Positions 3,410 to 17,698 are shown, numbered from the stretch's first letter. The stretch: 41,946 nt of DNA from a virus (IMGVR_UViG_3300001242_000012); one strand, 5' to 3'. Translations and numbers: made by a program. The notes: generated by a model not told the origin, from the letters alone.

Positions 3410-3482
3410 TGGATGGCACGGTAAGAGTCGAACTTACGTCACCAGCTTGTGGGCCGGAGCTCTACCATTAAGCTACATGCCA
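3410..3482 (-). tRNA. tRNA-like RNA with a 6-nt anticodon loop (CCACAA), U73 and encoded CCA
   Basis: Acceptor UGGCAUG/CGUGCCA, canonical D and T arms, stem CCGGC/GCUGG. Confidence 0.75.
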
Positions 3483-3489
3483 GTGTATT

Positions 3490-3702
3490 CTAGCAACATC
3501 TATACATTTTACATGGTCTAAAATCAAAGAGTTCAATAAGCTCTCCGTGGTTGTAGCAACAGTACCAAGCTTCTATTCTATTATCTTCAACAATCTTAGT
3601 ATTAGGATTAAGCACTATACCACCGCTAGCTCGTTTATTAATACAGTGTCGGCAACTCTTACAAGACCTTAACTTGAGCATTCCTAATATTTTATTAAAC
3701 AT
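3490..3702 (-). CDS. Cys-rich hypothetical protein
   Basis: ORF with GAGGTG RBS. Confidence 0.65.
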   Translation of the reverse strand: MFNKILGMLKLRSCKSCRHCINKRASGGIVLNPNTKIVEDNRIEAWYCCYNHGELIELFDFRPCKMYRCC

Positions 3703-3711
3703 ATATTCACC

Positions 3712-4050
3712 TCATCCAAATATTAATTTTTCATCATCCTTAGGTTTTCTGAATGCATTCTCACATCTAAATGACATGTTATTCTTTTTAGGATCTAATG
3801 ATATAAATTGCCCATTACAATACTTATCATTAGTCATTAAACACACATAAAGGTTATGATCTTGTTTACTACTAAAAGGACATTTAACAATCTCATTTAT
3901 TATATAAGCAAGACCTATTCCGCATTTATCTCCTCCTAAAATACTGTCGGGGAGTGTATTAATATTAGATATTACTATCTCATCTACATTGAATGTCACT
4001 ATATATTCACCACCACTGATATTATAAATATCACTATAATGTGAAGCCAT
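3712..4050 (-). CDS. hypothetical protein
   Basis: ORF track; start uncertain. Confidence 0.6.
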   Translation of the reverse strand: MASHYSDIYNISGGEYIVTFNVDEIVISNINTLPDSILGGDKCGIGLAYIINEIVKCPFSSKQDHNLYVCLMTNDKYCNGQFISLDPKKNNMSFRCENAFRKPKDDEKLIFG

Positions 4051-4379
4051 TGATCAATACCTATGTTCATCCACCATAAGCCAGGTATATCCTCCCTAGG
4101 TATACGCTTAACATTGACCATTAACCACACTACAAGCTTCCTATCATCAATAAAGAAATGAGATATTAGTAATGCTAAGTACGTCCATATCAAAGTCATT
4201 TCACTATATCCGAATAGAGTTAATGTTAAAGTAGATAGCGTAGCATAAATGAGTGAATGTACATATCTAGCTTTCCAGTTAGTAAACTTATTAGTTGCTT
4301 CCCAATTAGTTTGTACTATCCAGTCATAGGCCATACTAACGAATAAAACTATGAATAATGTAGCATCAAGTTTCAGCAT
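3999..4379 (-). CDS. DUF3307-like membrane protein
   Basis: SHFFIDD and GIDQWLH motifs, hydrophobic helices; start moved to the RBS-preceded ATG. Confidence 0.75.
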   Translation of the reverse strand: MLKLDATLFIVLFVSMAYDWIVQTNWEATNKFTNWKARYVHSLIYATLSTLTLTLFGYSEMTLIWTYLALLISHFFIDDRKLVVWLMVNVKRIPREDIPGLWWMNIGIDQWLHIIVIFIISVVVNI

Positions 4380-4578
4380 ATAATTCCTCCATATCAATTT
4401 TAATAAAATACTTATTGAATAAGGCATCATCATCTATATCCAAACCATCACTAATATTATAAGAGTTGTTATCGTCAGCTACAACTCTATATTTTCTCAT
4501 GCTTTCATATATTGGATAGATTTTATCTACTGTTAAGCGTCCATCGGCTCTTAGCTTCGCTATAGCATATATTTTCAC
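4366..4578 (-). CDS. small TxDKIY-family protein
   Basis: LTVDKIY...DDN...F.KYF. Confidence 0.75.
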   Translation of the reverse strand: MKIYAIAKLRADGRLTVDKIYPIYESMRKYRVVADDNNSYNISDGLDIDDDALFNKYFIKIDMEELYAET

Positions 4579-4587
4579 ACAATCACC

Positions 4588-4788
4588 TCATTCTCGATTA
4601 TAGATATCTATAATATATATAAAGTATCTATTAAACAATTCATCTGTATCGGTATCCAAGCTATCAGACACTCTGCAAATAGAAGCATCGTCTGATTTTA
4701 TCCAGTACCTATCTCCAAGTCTGTTCATATCATAGATTTTGTCAATAGTTAATGTCTCAGATACATTACGTTTTGCTACTGCTAACAT
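4588..4788 (-). CDS. small TxDKIY-family protein
   Basis: LTIDKIY...SDD...FNRYF. Confidence 0.75.
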   Translation of the reverse strand: MLAVAKRNVSETLTIDKIYDMNRLGDRYWIKSDDASICRVSDSLDTDTDELFNRYFIYIIDIYNRE

Positions 4789-4804
4789 TTTCCCCTCCTT
4801 ATAA

Positions 4805-4887
4805 TGGTGGAGAGAGTCAGAGTTGAACTGACACAGCCGAAGCCACGGTTTTACAGACCGCTTCCCTTACCAATGGGATATCTCTCC
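4805..4887 (-). tRNA. tRNA-Tyr(GUA)
   Basis: Cloverleaf with long variable arm, loop CUGUAAA, ACCA end. Confidence 0.92.
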
Positions 4888-5157
4888 ATCTAATGGTTCA
4901 AATCTATTGCCACATGTATGATACAAGCTTTCACATATTGTAACTACTTGCCCGGTACACTTACTACCTATACAATTATAATATCCTGACGGAAATCTTG
5001 TGTTGATTGTACCATCAAGTACGTGTTTGCATGTTCTAATGCTTGATATAACTACCGTAGTTCCCTTCTCTATTACTGAGAAACGGCGGTAATTATCTGT
5101 AATAGGACAGGAAAATATAGTTTTAACGATTTGGTCTACTTCGTATATCGGATACAT
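4867..5157 (-). CDS. Cys-rich DQIV-family protein
   Basis: YEVDQIV...KCTGQ...C. Confidence 0.75.
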   Translation of the reverse strand: MYPIYEVDQIVKTIFSCPITDNYRRFSVIEKGTTVVISSIRTCKHVLDGTINTRFPSGYYNCIGSKCTGQVVTICESLYHTCGNRFEPLDGEISHW

Positions 5158-5159
5158 TA

Positions 5160-5471
5160 TTAGTCTCCTGTAAATATATTGCCTATTTCCTCATTAGATG
5201 GTATAAAGTGGTTTGAACAAAATTGTTTATTACTTCCGCATATTTTTAATAACTGCCCATTACACTTTTGATTAAAACACATATAAGAACCATCTGGTTG
5301 CACTATTATGTCCTTGCGACCTGCTATTATTAATGGACAGTTACTAGCTTTATTAACAACTATATGATCTCCTTCTTCTATTTTAATAAGTCTATTACCT
5401 GTCGCTATTCTGATCTCACGAGTATTTAATAATATCTGGTCTTTAGAGAATTTAATAACATTCACCACCAA
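5160..5471 (-). CDS. Cys-rich DQIV-family protein
   Basis: KDQIL...CFNQKCNGQ...CSNHF. Confidence 0.75.
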   Translation of the reverse strand: MVVNVIKFSKDQILLNTREIRIATGNRLIKIEEGDHIVVNKASNCPLIIAGRKDIIVQPDGSYMCFNQKCNGQLLKICGSNKQFCSNHFIPSNEEIGNIFTGD

Positions 5472-5480
5472 GTTTATTTA

Positions 5481-5555
5481 TGGTGGACCCTGAGAGACTT
5501 GAACTCCCAACCAGCCGGTTATGAGCCGGATGCTCTACCGTTGAGCTAAGGGTCC
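5481..5555 (-). tRNA. tRNA(CAU), probably Ile2 type
   Basis: Loop CUCAUAA; the GGACCCU acceptor resembles Firmicute tRNA-Ile2; ACCA end. Confidence 0.88.
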
Positions 5556-5644
5556 AAGTGTCAGCCTTGCCCAGGGGCTGACGATAGTACTTAGAAGATT
5601 TACCTAGTCCCTCAACTAGGCTGCTAATGGTAGGTCTTTGGCTA

Positions 5645-5728
5645 TGGCGGAGGGCACAGGAGTCGAACCCGCTAGGCTTTTACACCCGACTGTTTTCAAG
5701 ACAGTTTGCCACCGTTGGCCTACCCTCC
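5645..5728 (-). tRNA. tRNA-Ser(UGA)
   Basis: Loop CUUGAAA, long variable arm, G73 CCA. Confidence 0.9.
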
Positions 5729-5743
5729 ATATTAAATTTAGTT

Positions 5744-5821
5744 TGGCTGGCATAGCTGGGCTCGAACCAGCAACCTCTTGATTAACAGTCAAGTGCTAAC
5801 TACCTATTGAGCTATATGCCA
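5744..5821 (-). tRNA. tRNA-Asn(GUU)
   Basis: Loop CUGUUAA, G73 CCA. Confidence 0.9.
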
Positions 5822-5888
5822 AGGTTAGTGGGTGTTGCGATCACCCACTAGGTAAAACCTGATATGGTTTAGGACCAGCAGTAGTCTT

Positions 5889-5964
5889 TGGTACTGAGGA
5901 CTGGAGTCGAACCAGCTACCACCTAATTAAAAGTTAGGTGCTCTTCCAGATGAGCTACCTCAGT
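5889..5964 (-). tRNA. tRNA-Lys(UUU)
   Basis: Loop CUUUUAA, ACCA end. Confidence 0.92.
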
Positions 5965-6161
5965 ATACTACGATTAATAAGAACAAATTGATCATCAGCC
6001 TCAAGTATTATATCTGTTGGAAAATTAAAGTTGTTATCATCAGATATATAGTATGCACTTTCTGTCTCAAAATTATTTGGTATGCCATACAGTATAGGAT
6101 ACATTTTGTCTTTTGTAAAGAAACTGTATTTATCCGTAATGCACACAATACTTCCTTGCAT
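5955..6161 (-). CDS. small TxDK(M)Y-family protein
   Basis: FTKDKMYPIL; start moved to the ATG after GAGGTG. Confidence 0.7.
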   Translation of the reverse strand: MQGSIVCITDKYSFFTKDKMYPILYGIPNNFETESAYYISDDNNFNFPTDIILEADDQFVLINRSILR

Positions 6162-6171
6162 ACCAACACCT

Positions 6172-6351
6172 CTAATCAATAAATATAAAATTGCTATCTC
6201 CATCTATCCAATTGGTTGATATCTGTTCGTCTTCATCATCAATTATATAATGATATAAACTATCTGATGATCTAACTAGTATAGGATACATTTTGTCTCG
6301 TGTCAGGAAGGTATATATACCAGTATTACATATTACATATTTAGGTTGCAT
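6172..6351 (-). CDS. small TxDK(M)Y-family protein missed by the ORF track (59 aa)
   Basis: Manual translation MQPKYVICNTGIYTFLTRDKMYPIL... Confidence 0.7.
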   Translation of the reverse strand: MQPKYVICNTGIYTFLTRDKMYPILVRSSDSLYHYIIDDEDEQISTNWIDGDSNFIFID

Positions 6352-6355
6352 ATTG

Positions 6356-6550
6356 TTACCTCAAATATGGATCTAGATCTTCATCACATATCCGACATAT
6401 CTTTAGAACTGGATGATAGGCTGGTGTTCCATCTGGGAACTTGTGATTGCATCCTCTAGTTAGTTTCCGTAACTTTGAGTCAATATTGATTAGAAACTTT
6501 CCACGCTCTTCCTTTAAAGCCATTACCTCATTTATTGTCCTCTGATTCAT
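6356..6550 (-). CDS. hypothetical protein (C.H...C.IC)
   Basis: ORF with AAGGAG RBS. Confidence 0.65.
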   Translation of the reverse strand: MNQRTINEVMALKEERGKFLINIDSKLRKLTRGCNHKFPDGTPAYHPVLKICRICDEDLDPYLR

Positions 6551-6570
6551 AATGATTCTCCTTAGTCATT

Positions 6571-6645
6571 TGGTTGCAGAGGTGGGACTCGAACCCACAA
6601 CCTTTAGCTTATGAGGCTAACGAGCTACCTTTGCTCTACTCTGCG
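6571..6645 (-). tRNA. tRNA-fMet-like (CAU)
   Basis: C1:A72 mismatch, GAGC/GCUC D stem, loop CUCAUAA. Confidence 0.85.
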
Positions 6646-6646
6646 A

Positions 6647-6719
6647 TGGAAGGGAGAGAAGGAATCGAACCTTCATAGCTAGGGTCTTCCTAGGATGTTG
6701 CCTGTTACATCATCTCCCT
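6647..6719 (-). tRNA. tRNA-like RNA with an aberrant anticodon arm (5-nt loop AAGAC), U73 and encoded CCA
   Basis: Acceptor AGGGAGA/UCUCCCU, T arm GAAGG-UUCGAUU-CCUUC. Confidence 0.7.
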
Positions 6720-6887
6720 ATGATATTCATCATAAACCTTTTCATACTCTCTTTGTTCTTCCCAAGACTTAAAGTTCTTAGTTACTTCACAGTCCTCACA
6801 TACTAATGCTTTCACATCATCGAACGTTATATCTTTTAATACCATTGTCTTTTTACATATAGGACATTTTAATTTTTTATATTTCAT
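6705..6887 (-). CDS. small Zn-ribbon protein
   Basis: CPIC...CEDC. Confidence 0.7.
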   Translation of the reverse strand: MKYKKLKCPICKKTMVLKDITFDDVKALVCEDCEVTKNFKSWEEQREYEKVYDEYHREMM

Positions 6888-6910
6888 TCGAGATCTCCTA
6901 AAAATATTTA

Positions 6911-7073
6911 TATTTGGGGAGGGATTAACGATTCTTCACCCTCGATTCCTGCCCTATACGACCATGATGTATAGCTCCGTATTGGCTTCGCTAACAGGTA
7001 TAGTTCTTTTCTTTGTCATAGACTTTTAATCTATTACCAACTCTTTGATCGTATGACTACTATCACCCAAATA
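6911..7073 (-). ncRNA. candidate multibranch structured RNA
   Basis: Terminal helix UAUUUGGG/CCCAAAUA plus several internal helices; no ORF. Confidence 0.45.
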
Positions 7074-7080
7074 ATTGTCC

Positions 7081-7146
7081 ATGGGAGAATAGTTAAGTAG
7101 GGTATATTATCTGTACGTAGAAGTAACCCTACTTTACACTACCCAT
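7081..7146 (-). ncRNA. Y RNA-like unit A (short, tRNA-less), just downstream of the Ro60 gene
   Basis: AUGGG/CCCAU outer stem, UAGUGUA, 9-bp inner stem, UACUUC, UAUUCU. Confidence 0.7.
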
Positions 7147-7152
7147 GAAATC

Positions 7153-8769
7153 TTAATATCTGTTTATAGTTTCAAGCACATTAGTGTTGTTGACTTCGCA
7201 TGTTTTAACGAAGTCAAAGATCTTTTCTGACCAACCAGCTATCCTATATACGTTAGGTTCATCCATAGGTACCGGTGTAGTACCATATGAAGATAAATCA
7301 ATAGTATATAGTTTGATATCTGGATTTATTGTTCTCCTATAGTCTTTCAGTAAATCAGCTAATGCCTTTCTGCTGCCACCACCATAACCCCAAGCAGTAA
7401 CACCATAGCATTGTTCGTCAGAGAAGATGAAGATTCTATCCGCAAAGGTTTTCTTCTTCAGTAGCTCTTCGACTACACGGTAAGCATTTGTAGACATACC
7501 TTTGGTATCTGCCCTAGCTATCCTATTCATGTTAGTGAATATGGAGTCAGCCGGATTAAGGTTAACAGGGCACCAATCAGTACCGAAAGCACCTACTATA
7601 GAAGACTCACAGAAACCATGAGCCATAGCACATAGTAAATTAGCAATGTTGGCACATGATACCTTGCTTCTTTCTGATACAGCTTGTGACATAGAACCAG
7701 AATTATCAGCTGCAAGCAGTGTTATACCTTCAAGCATAGGGACATTCTGTACACTTATACTAATGGCCTCAGATAATGCTGCAAGTACTTTAGATATATT
7801 AGGATTAGTACCAATTAAGCTTTCCATTTCACGATAAGCACTATAAAATCTAAATGGAAGCTGCTTAGATCTAAGAACTTGATTAGGGTCCTTCAATCTC
7901 TCAATGACACTACCTATACATTTAGCATCAGCATTAATGATGTTCCTTATATTACGGAGCATAGCCATGAAAGGTAAGTTAAGTTCATCCCATACTTCAG
8001 GCTTGTTACCAAACTTACTTACAGCCATCTCCCAGGTCATATCACCAGCCCTAATAAGATGTCTAGCTTCTTCGAAGTTATCTATCTTAGCAAACTCTTT
8101 ATGAGCTTTGTGCAGCACCATAACGTCATCGTTCTCTATATCATGACACATATACTTAAAGATAGCATCGTGCAGTACATCACTTGGTTTAGCACGACAT
8201 ACTCTGATTACATCTTTAATCTTAACTGATTTACTCCTGTCATACTTTAAGAAATGATACTCACCGAAAGTATTCAATACATCGGAGATACCTTTCTTAA
8301 GTGAGTTAGGGAAGGCATGAGTGCCACCTGCTTGACCTTTATCACCTATGTCACCATGTTTACTAACCCAGTAAGCAACTAGTTCAGCAGGTTCATCAGC
8401 ACGCTTTAATATACGAGGAACCCATTTACGAACGAATGGCTTACACTCATTGATTGCTGCAGCTTCACCCAGTAGTACTATAGGTATAGATCTTAAGTAC
8501 ATTTCATTTCTAGCATAAGCAGCTAGCTTTAAGATAAACTCAGGATCTATAGCTGCTACTTGCTTAATGTCTCTGATAATACCAGCAAGAGTTTCAGTGT
8601 TTTTCTGGTAGTAAGTATCAGACAGTAAGCAGTTACATACTTTCTTATACAGTCTAGTTTTAGCATCCATTTCGAAAGCTACACCACCTGCGAGGTTCTT
8701 AATTACATCAGGTCTGTTGACCACACTAGCCAATCTACTGGCAGAATTAAATTTAGACATTAGTGTCAC
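7153..8769 (-). CDS. rsr: Ro60/TROVE-domain RNA-binding protein with C-terminal vWA domain
   Basis: N...GG.AF, DPEFILKLA.YAR....LRS, PFMAMLRNIRN, SKQLPFRFYSAY, DNSGSM (MIDAS), IFSDEQ, IAGWSEKIFDF. Confidence 0.95.
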   Translation of the reverse strand: MTLMSKFNSASRLASVVNRPDVIKNLAGGVAFEMDAKTRLYKKVCNCLLSDTYYQKNTETLAGIIRDIKQVAAIDPEFILKLAAYARNEMYLRSIPIVLLGEAAAINECKPFVRKWVPRILKRADEPAELVAYWVSKHGDIGDKGQAGGTHAFPNSLKKGISDVLNTFGEYHFLKYDRSKSVKIKDVIRVCRAKPSDVLHDAIFKYMCHDIENDDVMVLHKAHKEFAKIDNFEEARHLIRAGDMTWEMAVSKFGNKPEVWDELNLPFMAMLRNIRNIINADAKCIGSVIERLKDPNQVLRSKQLPFRFYSAYREMESLIGTNPNISKVLAALSEAISISVQNVPMLEGITLLAADNSGSMSQAVSERSKVSCANIANLLCAMAHGFCESSIVGAFGTDWCPVNLNPADSIFTNMNRIARADTKGMSTNAYRVVEELLKKKTFADRIFIFSDEQCYGVTAWGYGGGSRKALADLLKDYRRTINPDIKLYTIDLSSYGTTPVPMDEPNVYRIAGWSEKIFDFVKTCEVNNTNVLETINRY

Positions 8770-8784
8770 TCCTTATAATTTGAT

Positions 8785-8871
8785 ATGAGAGAATAAATGA
8801 ATAGGGTAATTTGATGTTTCAATAAGATACTAATTTGTATATATGAAGTAACCCTATCCTACACTACTCAT
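8785..8871 (-). ncRNA. Y RNA-like unit B (short)
   Basis: AUGAG/CUCAU outer stem with the conserved motifs. Confidence 0.7.
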
Positions 8872-8879
8872 AAATTTGT

Positions 8880-9017
8880 ATGGGAGAATAATCACATAGA
8901 GTAGCTTTTAGTGCTCTAACCAACTGAGCTACAGAACCTTTTGATGAGGCCCTGGTAGGACTCGAACCTACGACCACTCGATTACAATTCGATGAAACTC
9001 TATGCTACACTACCCAT
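8880..9017 (-). ncRNA. YrlA-type Y RNA unit C (circularly permuted tRNA module)
   Basis: T arm GUAGG-UUCGAGU-CCUAC precedes a loop-closed acceptor stem, then D arm UAGCUCAGUUGGUUAGAGC. Confidence 0.85.
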
Positions 9018-9024
9018 AATATTG

Positions 9025-9162
9025 TATCAGGAAGAATTGTTCGTTAAGAGTACATAGTGCTCTACCAGCTGAGCTACGGAGCTATCAGTTGCTCTGATGG
9101 GACTCGAACCCATGACCACTCTATTAAATGTAGAAGTAACTCTTAACTACACTGTCCTGATA
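9025..9162 (-). ncRNA. YrlA-type Y RNA unit D
   Basis: T arm AUGGG-UUCGAGU-CCCAU, closed acceptor stem, D arm UAGCUCAGCUGGUAGAGC. Confidence 0.85.
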
Positions 9163-9170
9163 ATAAGCTT

Positions 9171-9311
9171 AGATTAGGAAGAATAAGCTATAAGGGTACA
9201 TTACGTTGCCTTGACTACTTGGCTAACCCACTATGGTTGTGGGTGAGAGATTTGCACTCCCGATCACGGCTGAAGATGCGAAGTAACCCATTATATACAC
9301 TATCCTAATCT
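9171..9311 (-). ncRNA. YrlA-type Y RNA unit E
   Basis: T loop UGCAAAU, ACCCAC/GUGGGU closed acceptor stem, D arm UAGCCAAGUAGUCAAGGC. Confidence 0.8.
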
Positions 9312-9319
9312 TAAAATTG

Positions 9320-9459
9320 TTAGGGAGAATTAAGCGATAAGAGACTATCTAAACCAGTGCCTTGGACCGCTTGGCTAACCCGTGATAGCCACGGGTGGAG
9401 GATTTGAACCTCCGGATGCTGGTGCCCTATTGAAGTAACTCTTATCTACACTACCCTAA
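9320..9459 (-). ncRNA. YrlA-type Y RNA unit F
   Basis: GGAGG-UUCAAAU-CCUCC, ACCCGUG-GCUAU-CACGGGU, D arm UAGCCAAGCGGUCCAAGGC, CUGGU/ACCAG stem. Confidence 0.88.
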
Positions 9460-9467
9460 TAGTTTGC

Positions 9468-9534
9468 GATAGGAGAATAATTAATAGTAGGGTGGCACTT
9501 TTATCAGAAGTAACCCTACATCACACTACCTATC
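9468..9534 (-). ncRNA. Y RNA-like unit G (short)
   Basis: GAUAGG/CCUAUC outer stem with the conserved motifs. Confidence 0.7.
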
Positions 9535-9541
9535 AATATTT

Positions 9542-9625
9542 TAATGAGAGAATAATTGGACAGAGAGCTTTGTATATAAATAAGAAGTTTATTTTTGAAG
9601 TAACTCTGCCCTACACTGCTCATTA
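9542..9625 (-). ncRNA. Y RNA-like unit H (short)
   Basis: UAAUGAG/CUCAUUA outer stem with the conserved motifs. Confidence 0.7.
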
Positions 9626-9769
9626 ATTACGTTGTGCTGGTGGTGCTCCTGGTCTAGAACTTACAGGAGCAGAATTGAGTCCTTGCTTTCTGACTCTACC
9701 CTGTGTAAGTAGAGCTTTATTAGGTTTAATACTATCATGTTTGAATAGATTTAACAACCATTTAAGCAT
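9623..9769 (-). CDS. small basic protein, 48 aa (MLKWLLNLFK...RPGAPPAQRN)
   Basis: Manual translation; AAGGAUGGU RBS-like sequence. Confidence 0.55.
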   Translation of the reverse strand: MLKWLLNLFKHDSIKPNKALLTQGRVRKQGLNSAPVSSRPGAPPAQRN

Positions 9770-9785
9770 AATACCATCCTTTCAT

Positions 9786-9873
9786 TGGAGGAGAGTGTAG
9801 GATTTGAACCTACGCAGGTGTTACCCTGACCTTTGATTAGCAATCAAGTACAATGCCACTCTGTCAACTCTCC
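9786..9873 (-). tRNA. tRNA-Ser(GCU)
   Basis: Loop UUGCUAA, long variable arm, CCA end (U73). Confidence 0.85.
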
Positions 9874-9878
9874 ATATC

Positions 9879-9956
9879 ATATGACCATTTGTGTCACGAA
9901 TCAGCCCACTCTGGACACCCTTCGCACCTCTGGCTACTCCCGCAGCCTGGTCATAT
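9879..9956 (-). ncRNA. candidate GC-rich three-way-junction RNA
   Basis: 9-bp terminal helix, GGCUGC-GGGA-GUAGCC, GUGUC/GACAC. Confidence 0.45.
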
Positions 9957-9965
9957 AAATTAAAC

Positions 9966-10054
9966 TGGCGACCGGGTGAGGATTTGTACCTCACTTCTAG
10001 TATATACTCTCCCAACTGATATATGTCGCTGCAGTTCGATTTGATATACCCGGT
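9966..10054 (-). ncRNA. degenerate tRNA-like element
   Basis: ACCGGG/CCCGGU, T arm UGAGG-UACAAAU-CCUCA, GCCA end; no D or anticodon arm recognisable. Confidence 0.5.
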
Positions 10055-10143
10055 AAAAGTATACTCTAAGCATTTTTGTTATAAGTTACTTATTGCGCTA
10101 ATAGGGCTTATAACAAAAACCATAGGTGATTGTTTTAACTTGA

Positions 10144-10362
10144 TTAAACTACCGGCCTTATAACTGTTTTGAATAGGCAGGATTCAAACCTGCTTGGTCC
10201 GGAATACGGTTCAGCTACCTTCGGTTTATCACGCCGATGCTGTACCCTATCGTATCTTATATGTTTTGGTAACTTGACATCCTTACTCTTGGCCTTCGGT
10301 TCAGGACTTCTTATATCTCTGCATATAGTAACTTTAGGTGTTCTCACCACGCCGCTATTCAA
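10144..10362 (-). CDS. basic hypothetical protein
   Basis: ORF track. Confidence 0.5.
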   Translation of the reverse strand: MNSGVVRTPKVTICRDIRSPEPKAKSKDVKLPKHIRYDRVQHRRDKPKVAEPYSGPSRFESCLFKTVIRPVV

Positions 10363-10382
10363 AAGTCAAAGAGGTTTACTAC

Positions 10383-10457
10383 TGGTCTGGGTGGCAAGGC
10401 TCGAACTTGCGACCACCTGCTCCCAAGGCAGGCATGCTACCACTGCACTACACCCAG
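10383..10457 (-). tRNA. tRNA-Pro(UGG)
   Basis: Loop CUUGGGA, C1:G72, ACCA end. Confidence 0.93.
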
Positions 10458-10462
10458 ATGGT

Positions 10463-10539
10463 TGGTGCACCATGAAGGACTTGAACCTTCAACCTACCGA
10501 TTAAGAGTCGGTTGCTCTAGCCAATTGAGCTAATGGTGC
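10463..10539 (-). tRNA. tRNA-Lys(CUU)
   Basis: Loop CUCUUAA, ACCA end. Confidence 0.93.
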
Positions 10540-10542
10540 ATG

Positions 10543-10748
10543 TAAGCGGGTAAGGATTTGCACCTTACATGTCATCAGGAGCTTATCCCTGATGGTCTAG
10601 CTGTTTTTACCTCTAGACAAGGATCTATGAACTCAATAGCTATCTAGAATTACTATATAGCGTCTACTATTGCCCTAAGAAAGGTATGCATCCCTTTTGG
10701 AAAACAGGCTTTACCACCGATTAAGGTGTCTATTCTCGCCACCGCTTA
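10543..10748 (-). ncRNA. 206-nt expanded tRNA-Leu-like RNA
   Basis: UAAGCGG/CCGCUUA, T arm GUAAGG-UGCAAAU-CCUUAC, long variable-arm-like hairpin, large inserts. Confidence 0.65.
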
Positions 10749-10753
10749 TTTAC

Positions 10754-10829
10754 TGGAGCCTCCTACAGGACTTGAACCCGTAACCCACTCCTTACAAAGG
10801 AGTCACTCTACCAATTGAGTTAAGGAGGC
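10754..10829 (-). tRNA. tRNA-Thr(UGU)
   Basis: Loop UUUGUAA, UCCA end. Confidence 0.93.
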
Positions 10830-11043
10830 AATTTCTACAAAATATTCTTTGAATGATGTATCAGCATCTGTATTACTATAAGCTGTAATGCAATATGTAT
10901 GATCATTATCACCTGTAAAATGATAATAACCATTCTTTTTAATTATCTTATATATTTTATCAACAGTTAATATTCTACTCATGCCACGTATACATGCCGC
11001 ATTAATAGTTTGGCCACTTATGCTGATTGTATTGATAACTATT

Positions 11044-11244
11044 TCACCTCACCGTATATAGTTCTATGAAATAATATTTGAAAGAAGTGTCTGTAATGTA
11101 ACTATCCGCTTTACATATATAATAGTTATGTCCATTGTCACCGACAACACGTAGTTCATTTCTATCGTCTTGGTAAAGTTTATATATTTTATCTACGGTG
11201 AATATATTAGTAGCCCTGTTCTTACATACCGTATATACTTTCAT
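11044..11244 (-). CDS. small TxDKIY-family protein
   Basis: FTVDKIY...GDN...FKYYF; start moved to the RBS-preceded ATG. Confidence 0.75.
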   Translation of the reverse strand: MKVYTVCKNRATNIFTVDKIYKLYQDDRNELRVVGDNGHNYYICKADSYITDTSFKYYFIELYTVR

Positions 11245-11259
11245 ATACAACCCCCTATC

Positions 11260-11425
11260 TGGTGCACCTGGCCGGTATCGAACCGGCTCTCGTTTCCTAA
11301 GCATAAGATCAAGGATTACGCGCTTCCTTACTCAACTTCACCGAGCGGTTTTTCAGTGCCTCTGCAACCTTATCTCTGCAACCAGTCTCCGTTTTACTGT
11401 GCTCTTTCCATTGAGCTACAGGTGC
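11260..11425 (-). ncRNA. 166-nt tRNA-like RNA with the anticodon arm replaced by a 112-nt segment
   Basis: GCACCUG/CAGGUGC plus ACCA, D arm GCUC-AAUGGAAA-GAGC, T arm GCCGG-UUCGAUA-CCGGC. Confidence 0.8.
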
Positions 11426-11631
11426 ATTAATATAAAGAAAGCATTAAATAAACTATCTATTTTAAGATTACTATCAAGTGAGATTCTAATCTTATGTTCA
11501 GAATCAGATGTAATAGTATAATATTCTTCTTCAGTATCTATATGTAATTCAGTTTCATAAATTTTATCTATAGTGATCATGTAAACATTTGAATTAATAT
11601 GTTTGACAGATCTTTTACAGACTATTAGCAT
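11416..11631 (-). CDS. small TxDKIY-family protein
   Basis: ITIDKIY...SDS...FNAFF. Confidence 0.7.
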   Translation of the reverse strand: MLIVCKRSVKHINSNVYMITIDKIYETELHIDTEEEYYTITSDSEHKIRISLDSNLKIDSLFNAFFILMHL

Positions 11632-11896
11632 CTTGTTCCTCCCATATTAGAACCTCATCTAATTTTGGCTCTCTGAAGTAGGTATGACACCAATAACATC
11701 CACGTATATTTATCTCAAGCTTTGCACATTCACTATCCATACTGCAAACATCAGCATGAAGGCATCTACGTACTTTATCAATTAGTACAGCAGTACCTTG
11801 TAAAATTGGTACTATATCTTCTTTGTCAAGGAGCAATATGAAGTCTGCTTCAACTATCACTATCTGGTCAGTCTCTAACATAGTTATCTCCTTCAA
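11615..11896 (-). CDS. Cys-rich DQIV-family protein
   Basis: ETDQIV...GTAV.I..VR.C...C.....WCH..FREP. Confidence 0.75.
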   Translation of the reverse strand: MKEITMLETDQIVIVEADFILLLDKEDIVPILQGTAVLIDKVRRCLHADVCSMDSECAKLEINIRGCYWCHTYFREPKLDEVLIWEEQDANSL

Positions 11897-12125
11897 ATAC
11901 TAGTTCTTCGTTGACCTTAGGAACTCTAAATTTATGAGCACAGAAGAATGTTTTATTGTTCACTCTATATATAGTCATACTACATCTTTTTTCGTAGGAA
12001 CATCGCATACCACATTTCCGTACATCATTTATGACTACTGCAGTTCCAGCTTTTATTGTAATATGATTTCCGGATCTCTTATAATACCATAGACTCTCAT
12101 TAGCGACCATTATTCTATCTATCAT
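11868..12125 (-). CDS. Cys-rich protein, paralog of 11615-11896
   Basis: GTAVVINDVRKC...FCAHKFRVP. Confidence 0.7.
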   Translation of the reverse strand: MIDRIMVANESLWYYKRSGNHITIKAGTAVVINDVRKCGMRCSYEKRCSMTIYRVNNKTFFCAHKFRVPKVNEELVFEGDNYVRD

Positions 12126-12369
12126 GGTATATTACCAGATCTGTATCTGTATCGATAGTATACATTGGATCATCATGAGTGTCTGTTAACTTGAAACCAA
12201 ACATTCCACATAGTATATCAGCTACTTCTGTGATACTCCCATGCTTGTACTCTATGTAATTAAGAGCTTCTTGGTACATATATCTAAGTGATTCAATATC
12301 AAATTCTTTCTCATGAGTGATAAGCTGAGTTTTAAAGTATCCATCTACTTCATAGGTAATCATGATCAC
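12115..12369 (-). CDS. hypothetical protein
   Basis: ORF track, operon packing. Confidence 0.65.
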   Translation of the reverse strand: MIMITYEVDGYFKTQLITHEKEFDIESLRYMYQEALNYIEYKHGSITEVADILCGMFGFKLTDTHDDPMYTIDTDTDLVIYHDR

Positions 12370-12385
12370 TGCTCCTAGTTTATAT

Positions 12386-12459
12386 TGGCATGGTAGTTAG
12401 GAATTGGACCCAAATCTACGGTGTTGGAAGCCGTTGTTCTACCGTTGAACTACTACCAC
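12386..12459 (-). tRNA. tRNA-Trp(CCA)
   Basis: Loop UUCCAAC, G73 CCA. Confidence 0.85.
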
Positions 12460-12681
12460 ATGTAGGCGGTATAACCGCCTATAATTGCTTAGCAATAAAT
12501 TCTCTAAGATCATTACTAATCTTAGTAAAGTTTTCTTCCGGTACTTCTATTAAATATCCACCTTTGATCTGTAGCCAGTAACCATTGTCTTTCTTAATGG
12601 TATGAACTACATCACCATATTTAGTTTTCAATGGGTAAATGTTTCTAATGGCGGTTTTTAAATCAATTGAATGATTCCCCT

Positions 12682-12930
12682 TTACTGGTTCTGAATGTCA
12701 TCAATCTTCGGATAATAGAATACAACGAAACCTTTACCATCTGGTTCTGATTCAGCAGAAACAAGTTCAACATTAGATAGTCTTCCATCAAATGTTTCTC
12801 TATGTAGCCCTGATAAAAGGTCTCGATCACTTATCTCATCTAATACCTCAACTAGATGTCCATAGTCATATGGATTTCTTACCTCTGCTTCTATCATTCC
12901 TTCTAGTGTGTAGTACATCCTTATCTTCAT
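12682..12930 (-). CDS. acidic hypothetical protein
   Basis: ORF track. Confidence 0.65.
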   Translation of the reverse strand: MKIRMYYTLEGMIEAEVRNPYDYGHLVEVLDEISDRDLLSGLHRETFDGRLSNVELVSAESEPDGKGFVVFYYPKIDDIQNQ

Positions 12931-12956
12931 ATTGAATCACTACCTTTGCGGTATCA

Positions 12957-13265
12957 TTAAATATCATAACATCTTTTATATCTAACATAACTTTGATATA
13001 TCCTTAATGATTGCCTTTCTTTGGGTTTAAGAATACTATTCTTCTTCTCCCATTTACACATCCAACAGCTACAGGAGGTATTATGTTTAGCAAGTCTACC
13101 TGGCTGTTCAATATATCTATCAGAATAATTTCGCATATTACGCCAAGATCTTTGGCCTTCCATCCTTCTATTTCTACGGTAGTTTATTATGCGCATTCTT
13201 TGATGCCTCTTATATGCTCTACCTCGTTTATTAGGTACGAAACCAAAGAGTAAGTATACCTCCAA
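12957..13265 (-). CDS. basic hypothetical protein (CSCWMC motif)
   Basis: ORF track. Confidence 0.6.
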   Translation of the reverse strand: MEVYLLFGFVPNKRGRAYKRHQRMRIINYRRNRRMEGQRSWRNMRNYSDRYIEQPGRLAKHNTSCSCWMCKWEKKNSILKPKERQSLRIYQSYVRYKRCYDI

Positions 13266-13294
13266 CTATAACACCTCCTGACTTTGATCACATC

Positions 13295-13690
13295 TTAAAA
13301 ATCATCATCAATGGCTAGTAACGTGTCTCTTTTCTTCTGAGCTAATGTCTTTTCCACCCTATTAGACTTGATATAGGATCTATAGAGATCCATAGCTATT
13401 TCTCTTAGGTCTATTCCTGGTTCATAGGTAACGAATTTGTAAGTTAGTTCGTGCCAGCATTCAAAGATGCAAGATTCTTTCTTACGTTCTAACCTTATAT
13501 AATAATCACATTCGTCAAGATTTCCCCAGTATAGATTTTTTTTGATGTCAGAAGAGACTTCATCTTCGATTGCCAATCGAAGATTATAATCGATATAAAT
13601 GTACTTTACCGTGATATCACTTCCAGTAGTAACACTTCCTCCAATTAACTTCTGTGTAGTATTCTTGGTTACGTTTAACCCAAGCTTCAC
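13295..13690 (-). CDS. hypothetical protein
   Basis: ORF track. Confidence 0.6.
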   Translation of the reverse strand: MKLGLNVTKNTTQKLIGGSVTTGSDITVKYIYIDYNLRLAIEDEVSSDIKKNLYWGNLDECDYYIRLERKKESCIFECWHELTYKFVTYEPGIDLREIAMDLYRSYIKSNRVEKTLAQKKRDTLLAIDDDF

Positions 13691-13976
13691 TACATTCGTT
13701 TACTACCTTTATCCATGTCTCATTATTTTCGTCATAACGATAAGCATAATGAGGTACATATCTATTGGCTAGAAATAACCATTCACCTAATGTACAGTAG
13801 CTTTTATAATCTACTATATCATAACTACAGAAGTATTTTTTATATACCTTACCATACGGTACATCATGTAACTTGCGTACTTTCTTATTAGCTAATCTCT
13901 TAGCATACTTTCTGTAGTGTGGGCCACTATCACCCACACATGGATTGTGTCTATAACTTCTTGACACTATGACCAC
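13617..13976 (-). CDS. basic phage protein (SRSYR...KRLANKKVRK)
   Basis: ORF with GGGAGGTG RBS. Confidence 0.7.
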   Translation of the reverse strand: MVIVSRSYRHNPCVGDSGPHYRKYAKRLANKKVRKLHDVPYGKVYKKYFCSYDIVDYKSYCTLGEWLFLANRYVPHYAYRYDENNETWIKVVNECSEAWVKRNQEYYTEVNWRKCYYWK

Positions 13977-14031
13977 CTCCCTTAGAAGGTGTTACGTCGC
14001 ATCCTTTCTTGCATCCGCTTCACTCCTCTAA

Positions 14032-14697
14032 CTATTCATCAGTTGCAGAATCAGGATCATAGAATGATAATGTAGCAGACTGTCCATCAGCTCTACCCCT
14101 CATATAACCTTTGGTAGCACAAGACATAGTAGTGAATGCATCTTTTGTACCTAATACATCATTAGTATATGAGGCCATATTACCAATCTTGATGTTTAGA
14201 TTCTCTGAAATCTTAGATAGGTCTTGGTTAGCACCCATATAAGCAAATGTCCACTTATTCGAACTGTTACATTGTTGTATTAGTTCTGCAAGACGGTTCT
14301 GGGTATATTCTTTTGAAGAATTTTCTTCCCCATCACTAATGATAGTAACCAGTATAGAATCGTTCTCATTACCAGATAAACTCTTGATATGCTCAATTGC
14401 ATATCCTACAGCATCATACATTGCTGTTCCACCATTAGGCTTATAGGATTCGCTTGTAAGCTCTTGTAATGAATCTAATGATTCACTAAGGAATACTGGA
14501 TTAACTGTATGGTTAAACTTTATGAGCGAAACACTGACATTATTATTAGCTTGCTCACTTTTGAGCATCTGAACCTGCTCGTTGAATCCTGATATAGTTT
14601 GTTCTTCTACGGGTTTCATTGAACCACTCTGGTCTAGTACATAAACAATGTGGGTTCTCCCACCTACTGACGCATTATAAGCATCTACTAAATCCAA
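14032..14697 (-). CDS. von Willebrand factor A domain protein
   Basis: VLDQSGSM MIDAS, GGTAMYDAVG, IISDGEENSS. Confidence 0.92.
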   Translation of the reverse strand: MDLVDAYNASVGGRTHIVYVLDQSGSMKPVEEQTISGFNEQVQMLKSEQANNNVSVSLIKFNHTVNPVFLSESLDSLQELTSESYKPNGGTAMYDAVGYAIEHIKSLSGNENDSILVTIISDGEENSSKEYTQNRLAELIQQCNSSNKWTFAYMGANQDLSKISENLNIKIGNMASYTNDVLGTKDAFTTMSCATKGYMRGRADGQSATLSFYDPDSATDE

Positions 14698-14710
14698 TTA
14701 GCAACTCTCC

Positions 14711-15214
14711 TTATTTAATTTCCTTAAGCTGTTTAGCAAGTTGTTTAACTTCATCCATCACATATTCAAAGTTTCTGTATACTTTTTCATCTTCTATTGG
14801 TAAAGGAATCATTGGAAATCTCTCTGATACTTTATTAGCGATTTCAATAAGACCTGGTACGTAATCAAAGGAATGAGCTGTATCAAAACCAAAGTACCAG
14901 TAGCCCTTAAGCATACCTTCTATGTGTGGCCCTTCCTCTGAATATGTAATGCCACCATGACATTGAAGACTATCAGTTTTACTGTAATCATCAATATGAG
15001 AAACTCTATGTAGTGGATGATTGGGCTTAACTCCTACATAACCATTAAGATTTTTCATTCTAGGATTTCTATGTATAATACAATGCATATCTTTATCGAA
15101 CCATTCGAAATGAGGTAGTTCATTTTCCCATTCCATTTCCACTATAGAACCTCCATATTCATAATGCCCTGACATTATGTCAGGGCATTCGTGATAATAC
15201 TTTGTCGGAAGCAT
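14711..15214 (-). CDS. conserved phage protein; true start probably ~80 nt downstream of the track start
   Basis: NGYVGV...CHGGITYS...YFGFDTAH. Confidence 0.75.
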   Translation of the reverse strand: MLPTKYYHECPDIMSGHYEYGGSIVEMEWENELPHFEWFDKDMHCIIHRNPRMKNLNGYVGVKPNHPLHRVSHIDDYSKTDSLQCHGGITYSEEGPHIEGMLKGYWYFGFDTAHSFDYVPGLIEIANKVSERFPMIPLPIEDEKVYRNFEYVMDEVKQLAKQLKEIK

Positions 15215-15501
15215 TATATTTTATGTTAAGTTTGCACACGGAGCAATTTATTTTTGTACAAAGAATGTACTACAGTATTTGAAGTGTGATGTATGCTCAG
15301 TATGAATAAGTAAGTGTAACTAAGGAACAGTGAAGTATAACTTATACTTTGTTTAGATAATAAGTTTTCTTCTTGTAAGAACCATGTTGTTCCTATTAAT
15401 TTAATGTGTATTACGTATCAAATTGATTCGTGTTTGATCCACTACACCTGTCCTCTGTTCGCCAGGTTGAACCGCTCACACTATGCATCCCTAACAAAGA
15501 T

Positions 15502-15530
15502 ATTTTACCACATTTATGATTCAATTTCAA
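15502..15530 (-). promoter_or_regulatory. sigma-A-type promoter
   Basis: TTGAAA-17 bp-TAAAAT with extended TG. Confidence 0.7.
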
Positions 15531-15772
15531 GTGTTTTTAGTAATTATATTCTTTAGCTTGAATATTGGATATACCAAACACAATATTAACGTTGATGTTA
15601 CACAAGCTACTAAAGTTCCTGGATATAGTAGGTCTGTCCATAGTGTAGTACTTCTGCCTCTTCCGTATACTAGCACTAATACTATGCCAATCGGAAGTAA
15701 TATTATGCCGAAGATATAAGCTAATGGGTATAAGATCCACTTAGGAACCAAATCGTCAATACCAAAGTTCAT
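15527..15772 (-). CDS. small membrane protein
   Basis: Two hydrophobic segments. Confidence 0.6.
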   Translation of the reverse strand: MNFGIDDLVPKWILYPLAYIFGIILLPIGIVLVLVYGRGRSTTLWTDLLYPGTLVACVTSTLILCLVYPIFKLKNIITKNT

Positions 15773-16072
15773 TTACATTACCATCTCTTCGAACCTAGTC
15801 TTAACTTTCTCGTTAGCAGCCCTAGAACTTTCAAGATTAACTACCAGATCATTAAGATCAGTAATCTGAGACCTAGCAACTACAATTCTGCTATCAATCT
15901 TGCTGTTGATTTTATTAATCTTAGTGACAATGCGCTTGAAGATATTCAGTTGGTTCTCAACCTTACGATCAAAATCCCTGAGATCCTCATTCAAATCCCT
16001 AATGATTGTCTCTGTATGAGACTTAATCCTTCTATTCCTCCACCATGCTAATAAACCAAACAAAACTATCAT
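15773..16072 (-). CDS. membrane-anchored coiled-coil protein
   Basis: ORF with GGGGAG RBS. Confidence 0.65.
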   Translation of the reverse strand: MIVLFGLLAWWRNRRIKSHTETIIRDLNEDLRDFDRKVENQLNIFKRIVTKINKINSKIDSRIVVARSQITDLNDLVVNLESSRAANEKVKTRFEEMVM

Positions 16073-16155
16073 CTCCCCTATTTAATTTTCGGAGGTGAAG
16101 GAAGGATAGGTAGTCTATAGCCTACACTAACCCAACTTCACCAATTTATTATGAC

Positions 16156-16252
16156 GTCTAAGGAATCGAACCTCTAAGATTTGGCACCAGCCACCTTTAG
16201 ATTTTATCTCTCGGTTAACGGATTCGAACCGTTACTATGCTACCAGCAACAT
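16156..16252 (-). ncRNA. two tandem mini D-loop/T-loop hairpin pairs
   Basis: A GCUGGU-loop hairpin followed by a GGUUCGA(A/U)UCC hairpin, twice. Confidence 0.45.
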
Positions 16253-16551
16253 CATAAATTTATTTCATCATCAAGTATATGGCGCAAACCTTTCCCTCCG
16301 ATCAATATCGTTCTATCTAATTTCGGAGAGCAAACTATATAACATATTTTACAAGGATGCTCCTTCTTCATTCCTTTAGCTAATACATAACAGACTGTTC
16401 CATTAGGAATATTAGTATCCTTGTCATTAACAGTATGGTCATAGAAATCTATCACTGCATTCGGATAACCTAATTCTCCAGCTAAAGTATGGTGGTAAGG
16501 ATACCTTTCGCCATTATCTTTGATTATAACAAGTTGATCTATCTGATACAT
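16252..16551 (-). CDS. DQIV-family protein
   Basis: YQIDQLVII. Confidence 0.7.
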   Translation of the reverse strand: MYQIDQLVIIKDNGERYPYHHTLAGELGYPNAVIDFYDHTVNDKDTNIPNGTVCYVLAKGMKKEHPCKICYIVCSPKLDRTILIGGKGLRHILDDEINL

Positions 16552-17623: not shown

Positions 17624-17698
17624 TGGTCGGGATGGAAGGGAACGATCCTTCGACCTCCTGCTCCCAAAGCAGGCGCTCCTCCACTGAGCTACATCCCG
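17624..17698 (-). tRNA. tRNA-Pro(UGG), second copy, with atypical T loop AUCGUUC
   Basis: Loop UUUGGGA, C1:G72, ACCA end. Confidence 0.85.

Follow-up and report, generated by a model that had tools for sequence, protein, structure and literature searches.

A phage RNA island built from tRNA parts and probably centred on a Ro60 protein flanked by eight Y RNAs

Our analysis of 41,946 nucleotides from an uncultured phage (IMGVR_UViG_3300001242_000012), a stretch to which we refer as the window, suggests that its tRNA-rich region (positions 3,410 to 16,252) is probably an island of non-coding RNAs assembled from parts of tRNAs, with a phage Ro60 protein at its centre. IMG/VR rates the parent virus record, of 244,052 bases, as complete; the window corresponds to bases 34248-76193 of this record read on the reverse strand, and all genes and RNAs discussed here lie on the minus strand of the window. 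The original prediction, made from sequence, had described 12 normal tRNAs beside 11 elements that lack a usable anticodon, and all are present as described, with one tRNA (tRNA-Pro, 17624-17698) just beyond the range: the two shrunken elements are S1 and S2, the two expanded ones X1 and, as we take it, X2, the four permuted ones Y3-Y6 (8880-9459), the hollow one H and the two miniature ones the modules of M. Together with five more (Y1, Y2, Y7, Y8, D1) this amounts to about 16 tRNA-derived, non-decoding RNA genes. At least nine of them are Y RNAs or likely partners of the phage Ro60, making the locus mainly an unusually large Ro60 system, and the anticodon appears to be missing mainly since a predicted protein-binding helix or a payload occupies its position. 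We base this on gene content, RNA architectures, covariation, family membership and co-occurrence, from which we infer Ro60 binding, RNA processing and tethering. That the pattern is not due to chance is indicated by the T-loop word GGTTCRANYCC, of which the window contains 13 copies against 0.11 expected, without exception on the gene strand; six of the 13 fall into non-canonical elements, and the whole genome holds 17, again all on the gene strand.

The Ro60 gene (7153-8769) encodes a protein of 538 amino acids with a TROVE domain (Pfam, 117 bits) and a Ro60-type vWA domain (vWA_Ro60, 31 bits); a search of 5.8 billion proteins found its best homologues, at 51% identity, in small unrelated phages. 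The nearest cellular homologues (about 40-43% identity) come from Patescibacteria, whereas DnaE, which in our phage is 45% identical to DnaE of Bacillus jumbo phages, points to phages of that type. Eight Y units flank the gene: seven stand in tandem 16-860 nt upstream of the TROVE open reading frame (ORF), namely Y1 (9544-9624), Y2 (9469-9534), Y3 (9321-9459), Y4 (9175-9308), Y5 (9028-9160), Y6 (8880-9018) and Y7 (8785-8872), and one, Y8 (7081-7147), follows 6 nt downstream. As is typical of YrlA, all eight are found within about 4 kb of Ro60/TROVE and on the same strand. Each unit is laid out on one plan, in which outer stem, YAGUGUR, 8-bp inner stem, UUACUUC, variable domain, inner return strand, WAUUCU and outer return strand succeed one another. 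The stem sequences vary from unit to unit yet remain complementary inside each unit: 60 of 64 possible pairs form in the inner stems of the eight units (mean 42 and maximum 52 when 3' strands are swapped between units) and 48 of 48 in the outer stems (mean 30.5, maximum 41 upon swapping). Since the stems pair within units and do so less when swapped, we conclude that structure is under selection in all eight, and the pairing of 5' and 3' ends into a long stem, which is another YrlA hallmark, takes the form of two stems kept by compensatory change.

The units differ in their variable domain. In Y3-Y6 it is a permuted tRNA module of 82-89 nt, which combines a T arm with an acceptor-like hairpin closed by a loop and a D arm; Y1, Y2, Y7 and Y8 are short units without this domain and were recognised by sequence reading, the stem-pair test and a unit finder. 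The Rfam model for YrlA (RF02553) aligns over its full length to Y5 (39.0 bits, E 1e-5) and Y6 (42.9 bits, E 9e-7), and the module of Y6 scores 28.7 bits with the tRNA model. Y3 and Y4, the latter with a non-consensus T loop (GUGCAAAUC), were assigned by reading and by fold, stem-pair and rotation tests. Judged by their sequences, then, the eight are paralogues of one another, Y RNAs on either side of a Ro60/TROVE gene whose product would be their predicted binding partner.

Their design is a family trait rather than peculiar to the window, although eight units make up the largest Y array seen among the loci examined. Records with the same Y type were fetched by the word AGTGTAGNNNNGAGTTACTTC, which matched 23 viral stretches, and a stricter unit finder located five Y units in L002 (among its tRNAs and upstream of its Ro60), four in L008 and one or two in others. 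As in the window, short and tRNA-module units are mixed in these phages, most such loci are tRNA arrays, and among 22 records retrieved with nothing but the Y motif, 12 have TROVE, as do seven of the nine that are complete. Several Y-type phages also carry RNAs of 140-150 nt (L190, G032:44053-44199; L184, G036:33830-33974; L185 and L186, G033; L187, G041; L188, G045) that consist of a complete open tRNA shell with 7-bp acceptor, textbook D arm and T arm. The place of the anticodon arm is taken by the Y inner stem together with an internal loop (GUUCC/GGUGUA), a short outer stem closed by a loop, and UACUUC. The copies in G032 and G036 are encoded on the strand of TROVE, within 1 kb downstream of it. 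Going by their architecture, these shell RNAs seem to be YrlA-type Y RNAs in unpermuted form. Indeed, when Y3-Y6 are rotated so as to start in the loop of the acceptor hairpin, their alignment to one shell RNA scores 97-122 as opposed to 56-69 unrotated (113 versus 65 for Y5); no score above 84.5 was obtained with 200 shuffled versions of Y5. Because rotation lifts the scores above those of shuffles, we conclude that Y3-Y6 are circularly permuted forms of a tRNA in which a Ro60-type helix has arisen from the anticodon arm. The missing anticodon in this class is thus a design feature, with the predicted Ro60-binding helix occupying the place of the anticodon arm.

A different payload in a conserved tRNA shell is what H (11260-11425) seems to represent. 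Its acceptor (GCACCUG/CAGGUGC), D arm and T arm are normal, an A73-CCA end is encoded, and 112 nt of conserved structured RNA replace the anticodon and variable arms. By blastn, 71 nt of H match an unannotated gap in seven Streptomyces phage records at 80% identity, and the family, as defined by a two-block pattern with 23 fixed bases, comprises 21 matching viral stretches (at least 21 contigs), whose members sit inside tRNA arrays at every locus examined. All 19 distinct sequences have 7-bp acceptor stems. An alignment of 18 of them reveals strong covariation in the acceptor, the T stem and the hairpin that stands at the anticodon position, and almost no variation in the loop AAAACGGA, the hairpin GGUUGC-RGAN-GCACC and the block GGAAGCGCGU. 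H itself shows the full set of family features, i.e. 7-bp acceptor, D arm, AAAACGGA-loop hairpin, both core blocks (GGUUGC-RGAN-GCAC and GGAAGCGCGU) and T arm, and it scores 124 bits with a covariance model of the family (R1), ordinary tRNAs scoring at most 32. The same model rules out X1 (no match), X2 (9.6 bits) and D1 (5.8 bits) as diverged family members. Rfam 15 has no match at any of 11 H-family loci scanned.

Other identities considered for H fail. ARAGORN, relaxed thresholds included, detects no transfer-messenger RNA (tmRNA) in H, X1 or X2, the Rfam tmRNA score staying at or below 12 bits, and it calls no tmRNA in the genome as a whole. In intron mode ARAGORN reads H as a tRNA-Ile with an 86-nt intron, a call we reject on the grounds that across the family the blocks of the insert are conserved and the anticodon loop is not; no such call is made for X1 and X2, and group I and II introns in Rfam match none of the three.

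H-bearing phages tend to encode TROVE, which is found in 12 of the 22 H-family records (perhaps eight lineages) and in six of the nine complete ones, compared with 293 of 50,697 phage records overall. The enrichment is real, though not obligate. The exact H pattern is found in none of 26 Ro60 or Y-type records, and R1 added one further member, in a 376-kb phage that bears Y units and TROVE as well. H is therefore a member of a conserved tRNA-shell RNA family with a statistical link to Ro60-encoding phages, and, together with the eight Y RNAs around the Ro60 gene, this bears out for most of the set the tie to Ro60 that the original prediction had drawn.

Several of our observations weigh against such a Ro60-centred reading. 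Y5 and Y6 score below the YrlA gathering cut-off of 69 bits and the other units go unmatched in Rfam. The canonical bacterial Ro-binding motif GNCGAA is missing from seven of the eight Y units: where YrlA has GNCGAA(N)G near the 5' end, the units read YAGUGUR...UUACUUC, and CGAA occurs in Y6 only and at another position. In a sister assembly, L177, a 2-nt insertion at window position 7635 breaks the Ro60 frame, be it as a variant or an assembly error, so that the Ro60 system may be dispensable or the L177 assembly faulty. As for H, three complete phages that bear it have no TROVE match, a clear member was found by R1 in just one of 21 Y-type records, and the distance between H and Ro60 is 2.5 kb in the window as against about 10 kb in Streptomyces phage Comrade. 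Lastly, a Ro60-centred island explains little of S1, S2, X1, X2, D1 and M.

With these caveats, the following scenario may be envisaged. The 12 tRNAs and the tRNA-like RNAs would probably be made as long transcripts and cut out by host tRNA-processing enzymes, since junctions between tRNAs and elements are tight, CCA ends are encoded and terminators are lacking; consistent with this, neither terminators nor promoters are enriched across 15 kb of the region. Most likely, the eight Y RNAs would dock on Ro60 through their two-stem helix (outer stem, YAGUGUR/WAUUCU internal loop, inner stem, UUACUUC). As this helix would sit at the anticodon-arm position of a tRNA, the units with a tRNA module and their unpermuted relatives would be left without an anticodon. 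The variable modules, be it a tRNA-like elbow or an A/U-rich loop, might then tether Ro60 to different host factors, be they exonucleases (PNPase, for example) or tRNA-binding enzymes, a proposal modelled on phage phiLo and on the complex that Ro60, Y RNA and PNPase form in bacteria. Tethering of this kind could re-programme RNA decay and repair during infection, alongside a phage RtcB ligase whose gene (genome 5667-6773) lies about 60 kb from that of Ro60; RNA ligases of the Rnl family (PF09414) are absent from the genome.

This leaves S1, S2, X1, X2, D1 and M, orphans some of which may be functional tRNA-scaffolded RNAs and some decaying copies. S1 (3410-3482) carries a 6-nt loop, CCACAA, and S2 (6647-6719), which abuts tRNA-Met, a 5-nt loop, AAGAC, each on a 5-bp anticodon stem and with an encoded U73-CCA end. 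A decoding tRNA would need a 7-nt loop with U33 and a 3-nt anticodon, and neither loop offers this: ARAGORN labels S1 'tRNA-???' with anticodon (ac) and forces 'aga' without U33 upon S2. Both fold into cloverleaves and exceed the Rfam tRNA (RF00005) cut-off of 29 bits (51.8 bits for S1 and 44.8 bits for S2, whose fold z is -2.15). X1 (10541-10747, 207 nt), which sits exactly between tRNA-Thr and tRNA-Lys, combines a 7-bp acceptor, Leu-type D-arm halves about 60 nt apart, a long variable-arm hairpin and a T arm (loop GUGCAAAUC) without CCA, and its fold (z = -2.9) is better than that of 199 of 200 shuffles. X2 (10170-10362, 193 nt; z = -1.4, which is weak) has a 7-bp acceptor stem beside a T arm (loop GUUUGAAUC) and no encoded CCA; it is similar to X1 in outline, but sequence likeness between the two is limited to the first 25 nt or so and the T arm, so we do not regard them as paralogues. 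D1 (9966-10055; reading; z = -1.4) joins a 6-bp acceptor, one long bulged hairpin, a T arm (loop GUACAAAUC) and a G-CCA end, and has no anticodon arm. M (16156-16254; reading; z = -1.6) occupies a 179-nt intergenic gap between two ORFs; in both of its modules a D-like hairpin with the loop UGGU precedes a consensus T arm, which bears an exact T-loop word. At permissive thresholds Rfam offers no family for H, X1, X2, D1 or M.

Could these orphans simply be tRNA genes damaged by small indels in a fast-evolving array and now devoid of function? For X1, X2 and D1, which returned no match in blastn searches of 50,697 phage records and have non-consensus T loops, X2 and D1 folding weakly besides, this is conceivable. 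It would also fit the sister assembly (L177, ENA ANAN16-1 scaffold_5502), which is 99.3% identical over window positions 13373-7265 and from which 29 nt including the X1 T arm (10549-10577) are missing; together with a single-nucleotide polymorphism in the X1 hairpin loop (10649), this may reflect variants or assembly errors. Moreover, short-loop tRNAs are rare one-offs in other arrays, where ARAGORN makes roughly one abnormal-loop call per 100 tRNAs surveyed. Yet S1 and S2 have kept their CCA, and their acceptor, D and T arms show no flaw. In addition, tRNAs with a 6-nt anticodon loop and a 4-nt variable loop, which resemble S1, recur in the tRNA arrays of two unrelated phages (L002:9336-9409, UUCAAG; L160:2854-2925, CUCCAA), with ARAGORN flagging one more in L173, so that together with S1 they may form a recurrent class. 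M, too, repeats its two-part design twice, and a similar module closed by a GC stem lies 57 kb away near RtcB (genome about 2735-2815); neither this nor another hairpin with consensus T arm at genome about 237,020-237,090 is called a tRNA. Since phage genomes are compact and neither the Y RNAs nor H can be explained by decay, we consider a general loss of function among the orphans improbable. Neutral decay, which the original prediction had named as what would speak against it, is thus contradicted for the Y RNAs and H and hinted at, weakly, for X1 through the T-arm deletion in L177.

To our minds, a counter-defence scenario in which anticodon-less mimics titrate or distract tRNA-directed toxins or elbow- and acceptor-binding factors, thereby protecting real tRNAs, seems equally unlikely. 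In its favour, the normal set includes tRNAs for Lys (UUU), Tyr and Asn, which we take to be known targets of anticodon nucleases, the genome encodes RtcB, a ligase able to reseal cleaved tRNA, and the perfect acceptor stems and encoded CCA of S1, S2, D1 and H could engage acceptor-end binders. Anticodon nucleases are generally understood to recognise the anticodon stem-loop, and this is absent from the elements, none of which has a 7-nt U33 loop, so they would be neither nuclease substrates nor replacements and the decoy idea is hard to reconcile with their structure. One 10-mer, CTTAATCGGT, is common to a hairpin of X1 (CACC-UUAAUC-GGUG, 10700-10730) and the anticodon arm of the neighbouring tRNA-Lys(CUU) (10495-10515), a match that could be taken to support mimicry; as about 0.2 such matches are expected by chance, it is not significant by itself. 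Nine of the elements are better supported as Ro60 partners, and no association with defence or anti-defence genes turned up, no test having been aimed at one. Phage tRNAs are known to counter anticodon nucleases (PMC10264068), but the published countermeasure consists of decoding tRNAs with resistant loops, unlike the RNAs described here.

Equally doubtful is a more elaborate variant, in which the elements would be a graded panel of anticodon-less tRNA mimics that capture or retarget different host tRNA-binding factors, tRNA-directed defence toxins included, and Ro60 would be the hub at which captured molecules are retained or destroyed. Each element would keep its own subset of tRNA recognition surfaces: shell and CCA in S1, S2, H and D1, acceptor and T arm in X1 and X2, and the elbow only in M and Y3-Y6. 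Least probable, as an account in its own right, is that tRNA-like ends and T-arm modules are processing or stability handles which recruit RNase P or RNase Z, block exonucleases, punctuate polycistronic transcripts or act as 'tRNA scaffolds' for payloads unrelated to Ro60: while X1 and S2 abut tRNAs with spacers of 0-3 nt, M sits between two ORFs, there are no terminators in 15 kb, T-arm modules exist outside the tRNA region and H-type RNAs hold a conserved payload in an intact tRNA shell, such handles concern the making of the RNAs rather than their role, are compatible with a Ro60-centred island instead of competing with it, and do not account for co-occurrence with TROVE.

The Ro60-centred island is embedded in a tRNA array. 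ARAGORN reports 14 tRNA-shaped genes, all on the minus strand, two of which are the abnormal S1 and S2 and 12 of which have normal 7-nt anticodon loops: tRNA-Tyr(GUA) (4805-4887), two tRNA-Met(CAU) (5481-5555 and 6571-6645), tRNA-Ser(UGA) (5645-5728), tRNA-Ser(GCU) (9786-9873), tRNA-Asn(GUU) (5744-5821), tRNA-Lys(UUU) (5889-5964), tRNA-Lys(CUU) (10463-10539), two tRNA-Pro(UGG) (10383-10457 and the above-mentioned 17624-17698), tRNA-Thr(UGU) (10754-10829) and tRNA-Trp(CCA) (12386-12459). Rfam agrees throughout except for tRNA-Ser(UGA), a class II tRNA with the 7-nt loop CUUGAAA, for which it returns a sub-threshold tRNA-Sec match only. The spacers after tRNA-Lys(UUU) (5822-5888) and tRNA-Ser(UGA) (5556-5644) both start with CAAAGACYUAC and continue into GC-rich hairpins, which may be a shared processing signal. 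Small ORFs fill gaps between tRNAs (4867-5471 and 6356-6887); at least the one at 6705-6887 encodes paired CxxC motifs reminiscent of a zinc ribbon, and the others appear similar on reading. Directly upstream of tRNA-Ser(GCU), a candidate three-way-junction RNA with an 11-bp closing stem (9874-9962) contains GCGAA and has the strongest fold in the region (z = -5.1), with no match in Rfam or blast. After Y8, a non-coding gap of about 160 nt (6911-7073) has possible helices, a fold z of only -0.8 and no homologue, which is too little to count it as an RNA gene; blastn against the 50,697 phage records found no match for this interval (6905-7080) or for the 9874-9962 hairpin. The phage as a whole is isolated among the sequences searched: megablast of 14 kb against phage sequences gave no match, and peptide-word scans with Ro60 and DnaE produced no close relative, peaking at 29-34% identity.

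What makes the locus attractive is that the function of Ro60-Y RNA particles in bacteria and phages is poorly understood, and here one phage has eight Y RNAs with interchangeable modules, so that one can test whether a single Ro60 is led to various targets depending on the Y module. Comparison with other phages further yields a clear evolutionary link that leads from a tRNA, via a tRNA shell with a Ro-binding helix for an anticodon arm, to the circularly permuted YrlA form, and the locus holds with H a second, uncatalogued tRNA-shell family, unmatched by Rfam 15. In more general terms, a tRNA-like element without anticodon in a phage tRNA array would usually signal a protein-docking RNA rather than a broken tRNA or a nuclease decoy. 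Precedents for such non-decoding company exist. Stable RNAs C and D, encoded in the tRNA cluster of phage T4, do not decode and are co-transcribed and processed with the tRNAs, and in tRNA scaffolds engineered for RNA expression the payload takes the place of the anticodon arm; both resemble our elements in concept. Nuclease-evading phage tRNAs (van den Berg et al. 2023, PMC10264068) likewise come in arrays of large phages, which have been read as a response to tRNA-targeting defences, but they decode, with altered yet functional anticodon loops, whereas the elements described here are without a usable anticodon.

Closer to our system is the rsr-yrlBA-rtcBA RNA repair operon of Salmonella (PMC7790460), in that Ro60, Y RNAs and RtcB are all present in the phage, although RtcB is encoded about 60 kb from Ro60 and not in one operon with it; in this context, TROVE proteins of jumbo phages have been discussed as RNA-repair platforms (PMC7824862). 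Thermus phage phiLo, the only phage system with biochemistry, encodes a Ro60 that binds two Y-like RNAs (Yrl1, Yrl2) and host PNPase and attenuates the latter (PMC12135203). As in our phage, Y-like RNAs lie just upstream of a phage-encoded Ro60, but those of phiLo are two, have the CGAA motif and no tRNA module was described for them, while here there are eight with another motif, four of them with tRNA modules and all within a tRNA array. The closest relatives are YrlA-type Y RNAs and their partner Rsr (RF02553; Chen et al. 2014, PMC4201824), tRNA mimics that adjoin Ro60 in 254 bacteria and 22 phages (355 YrlAs in 276 genomes). With these the Y RNAs of the window share their place beside Ro60 on the same strand, ends that pair into a long stem, an internal domain of T arm, closed acceptor-like hairpin and D arm and, for Y5 and Y6, alignment to the full-length model. 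They differ in scoring 39-43 bits against a cut-off of 69, in a stem motif that reads YAGUGUR/WAUUCU plus UUACUUC instead of GNCGAA, and in number and make-up, with eight units rather than the usual one or two, half of which do without the tRNA module.

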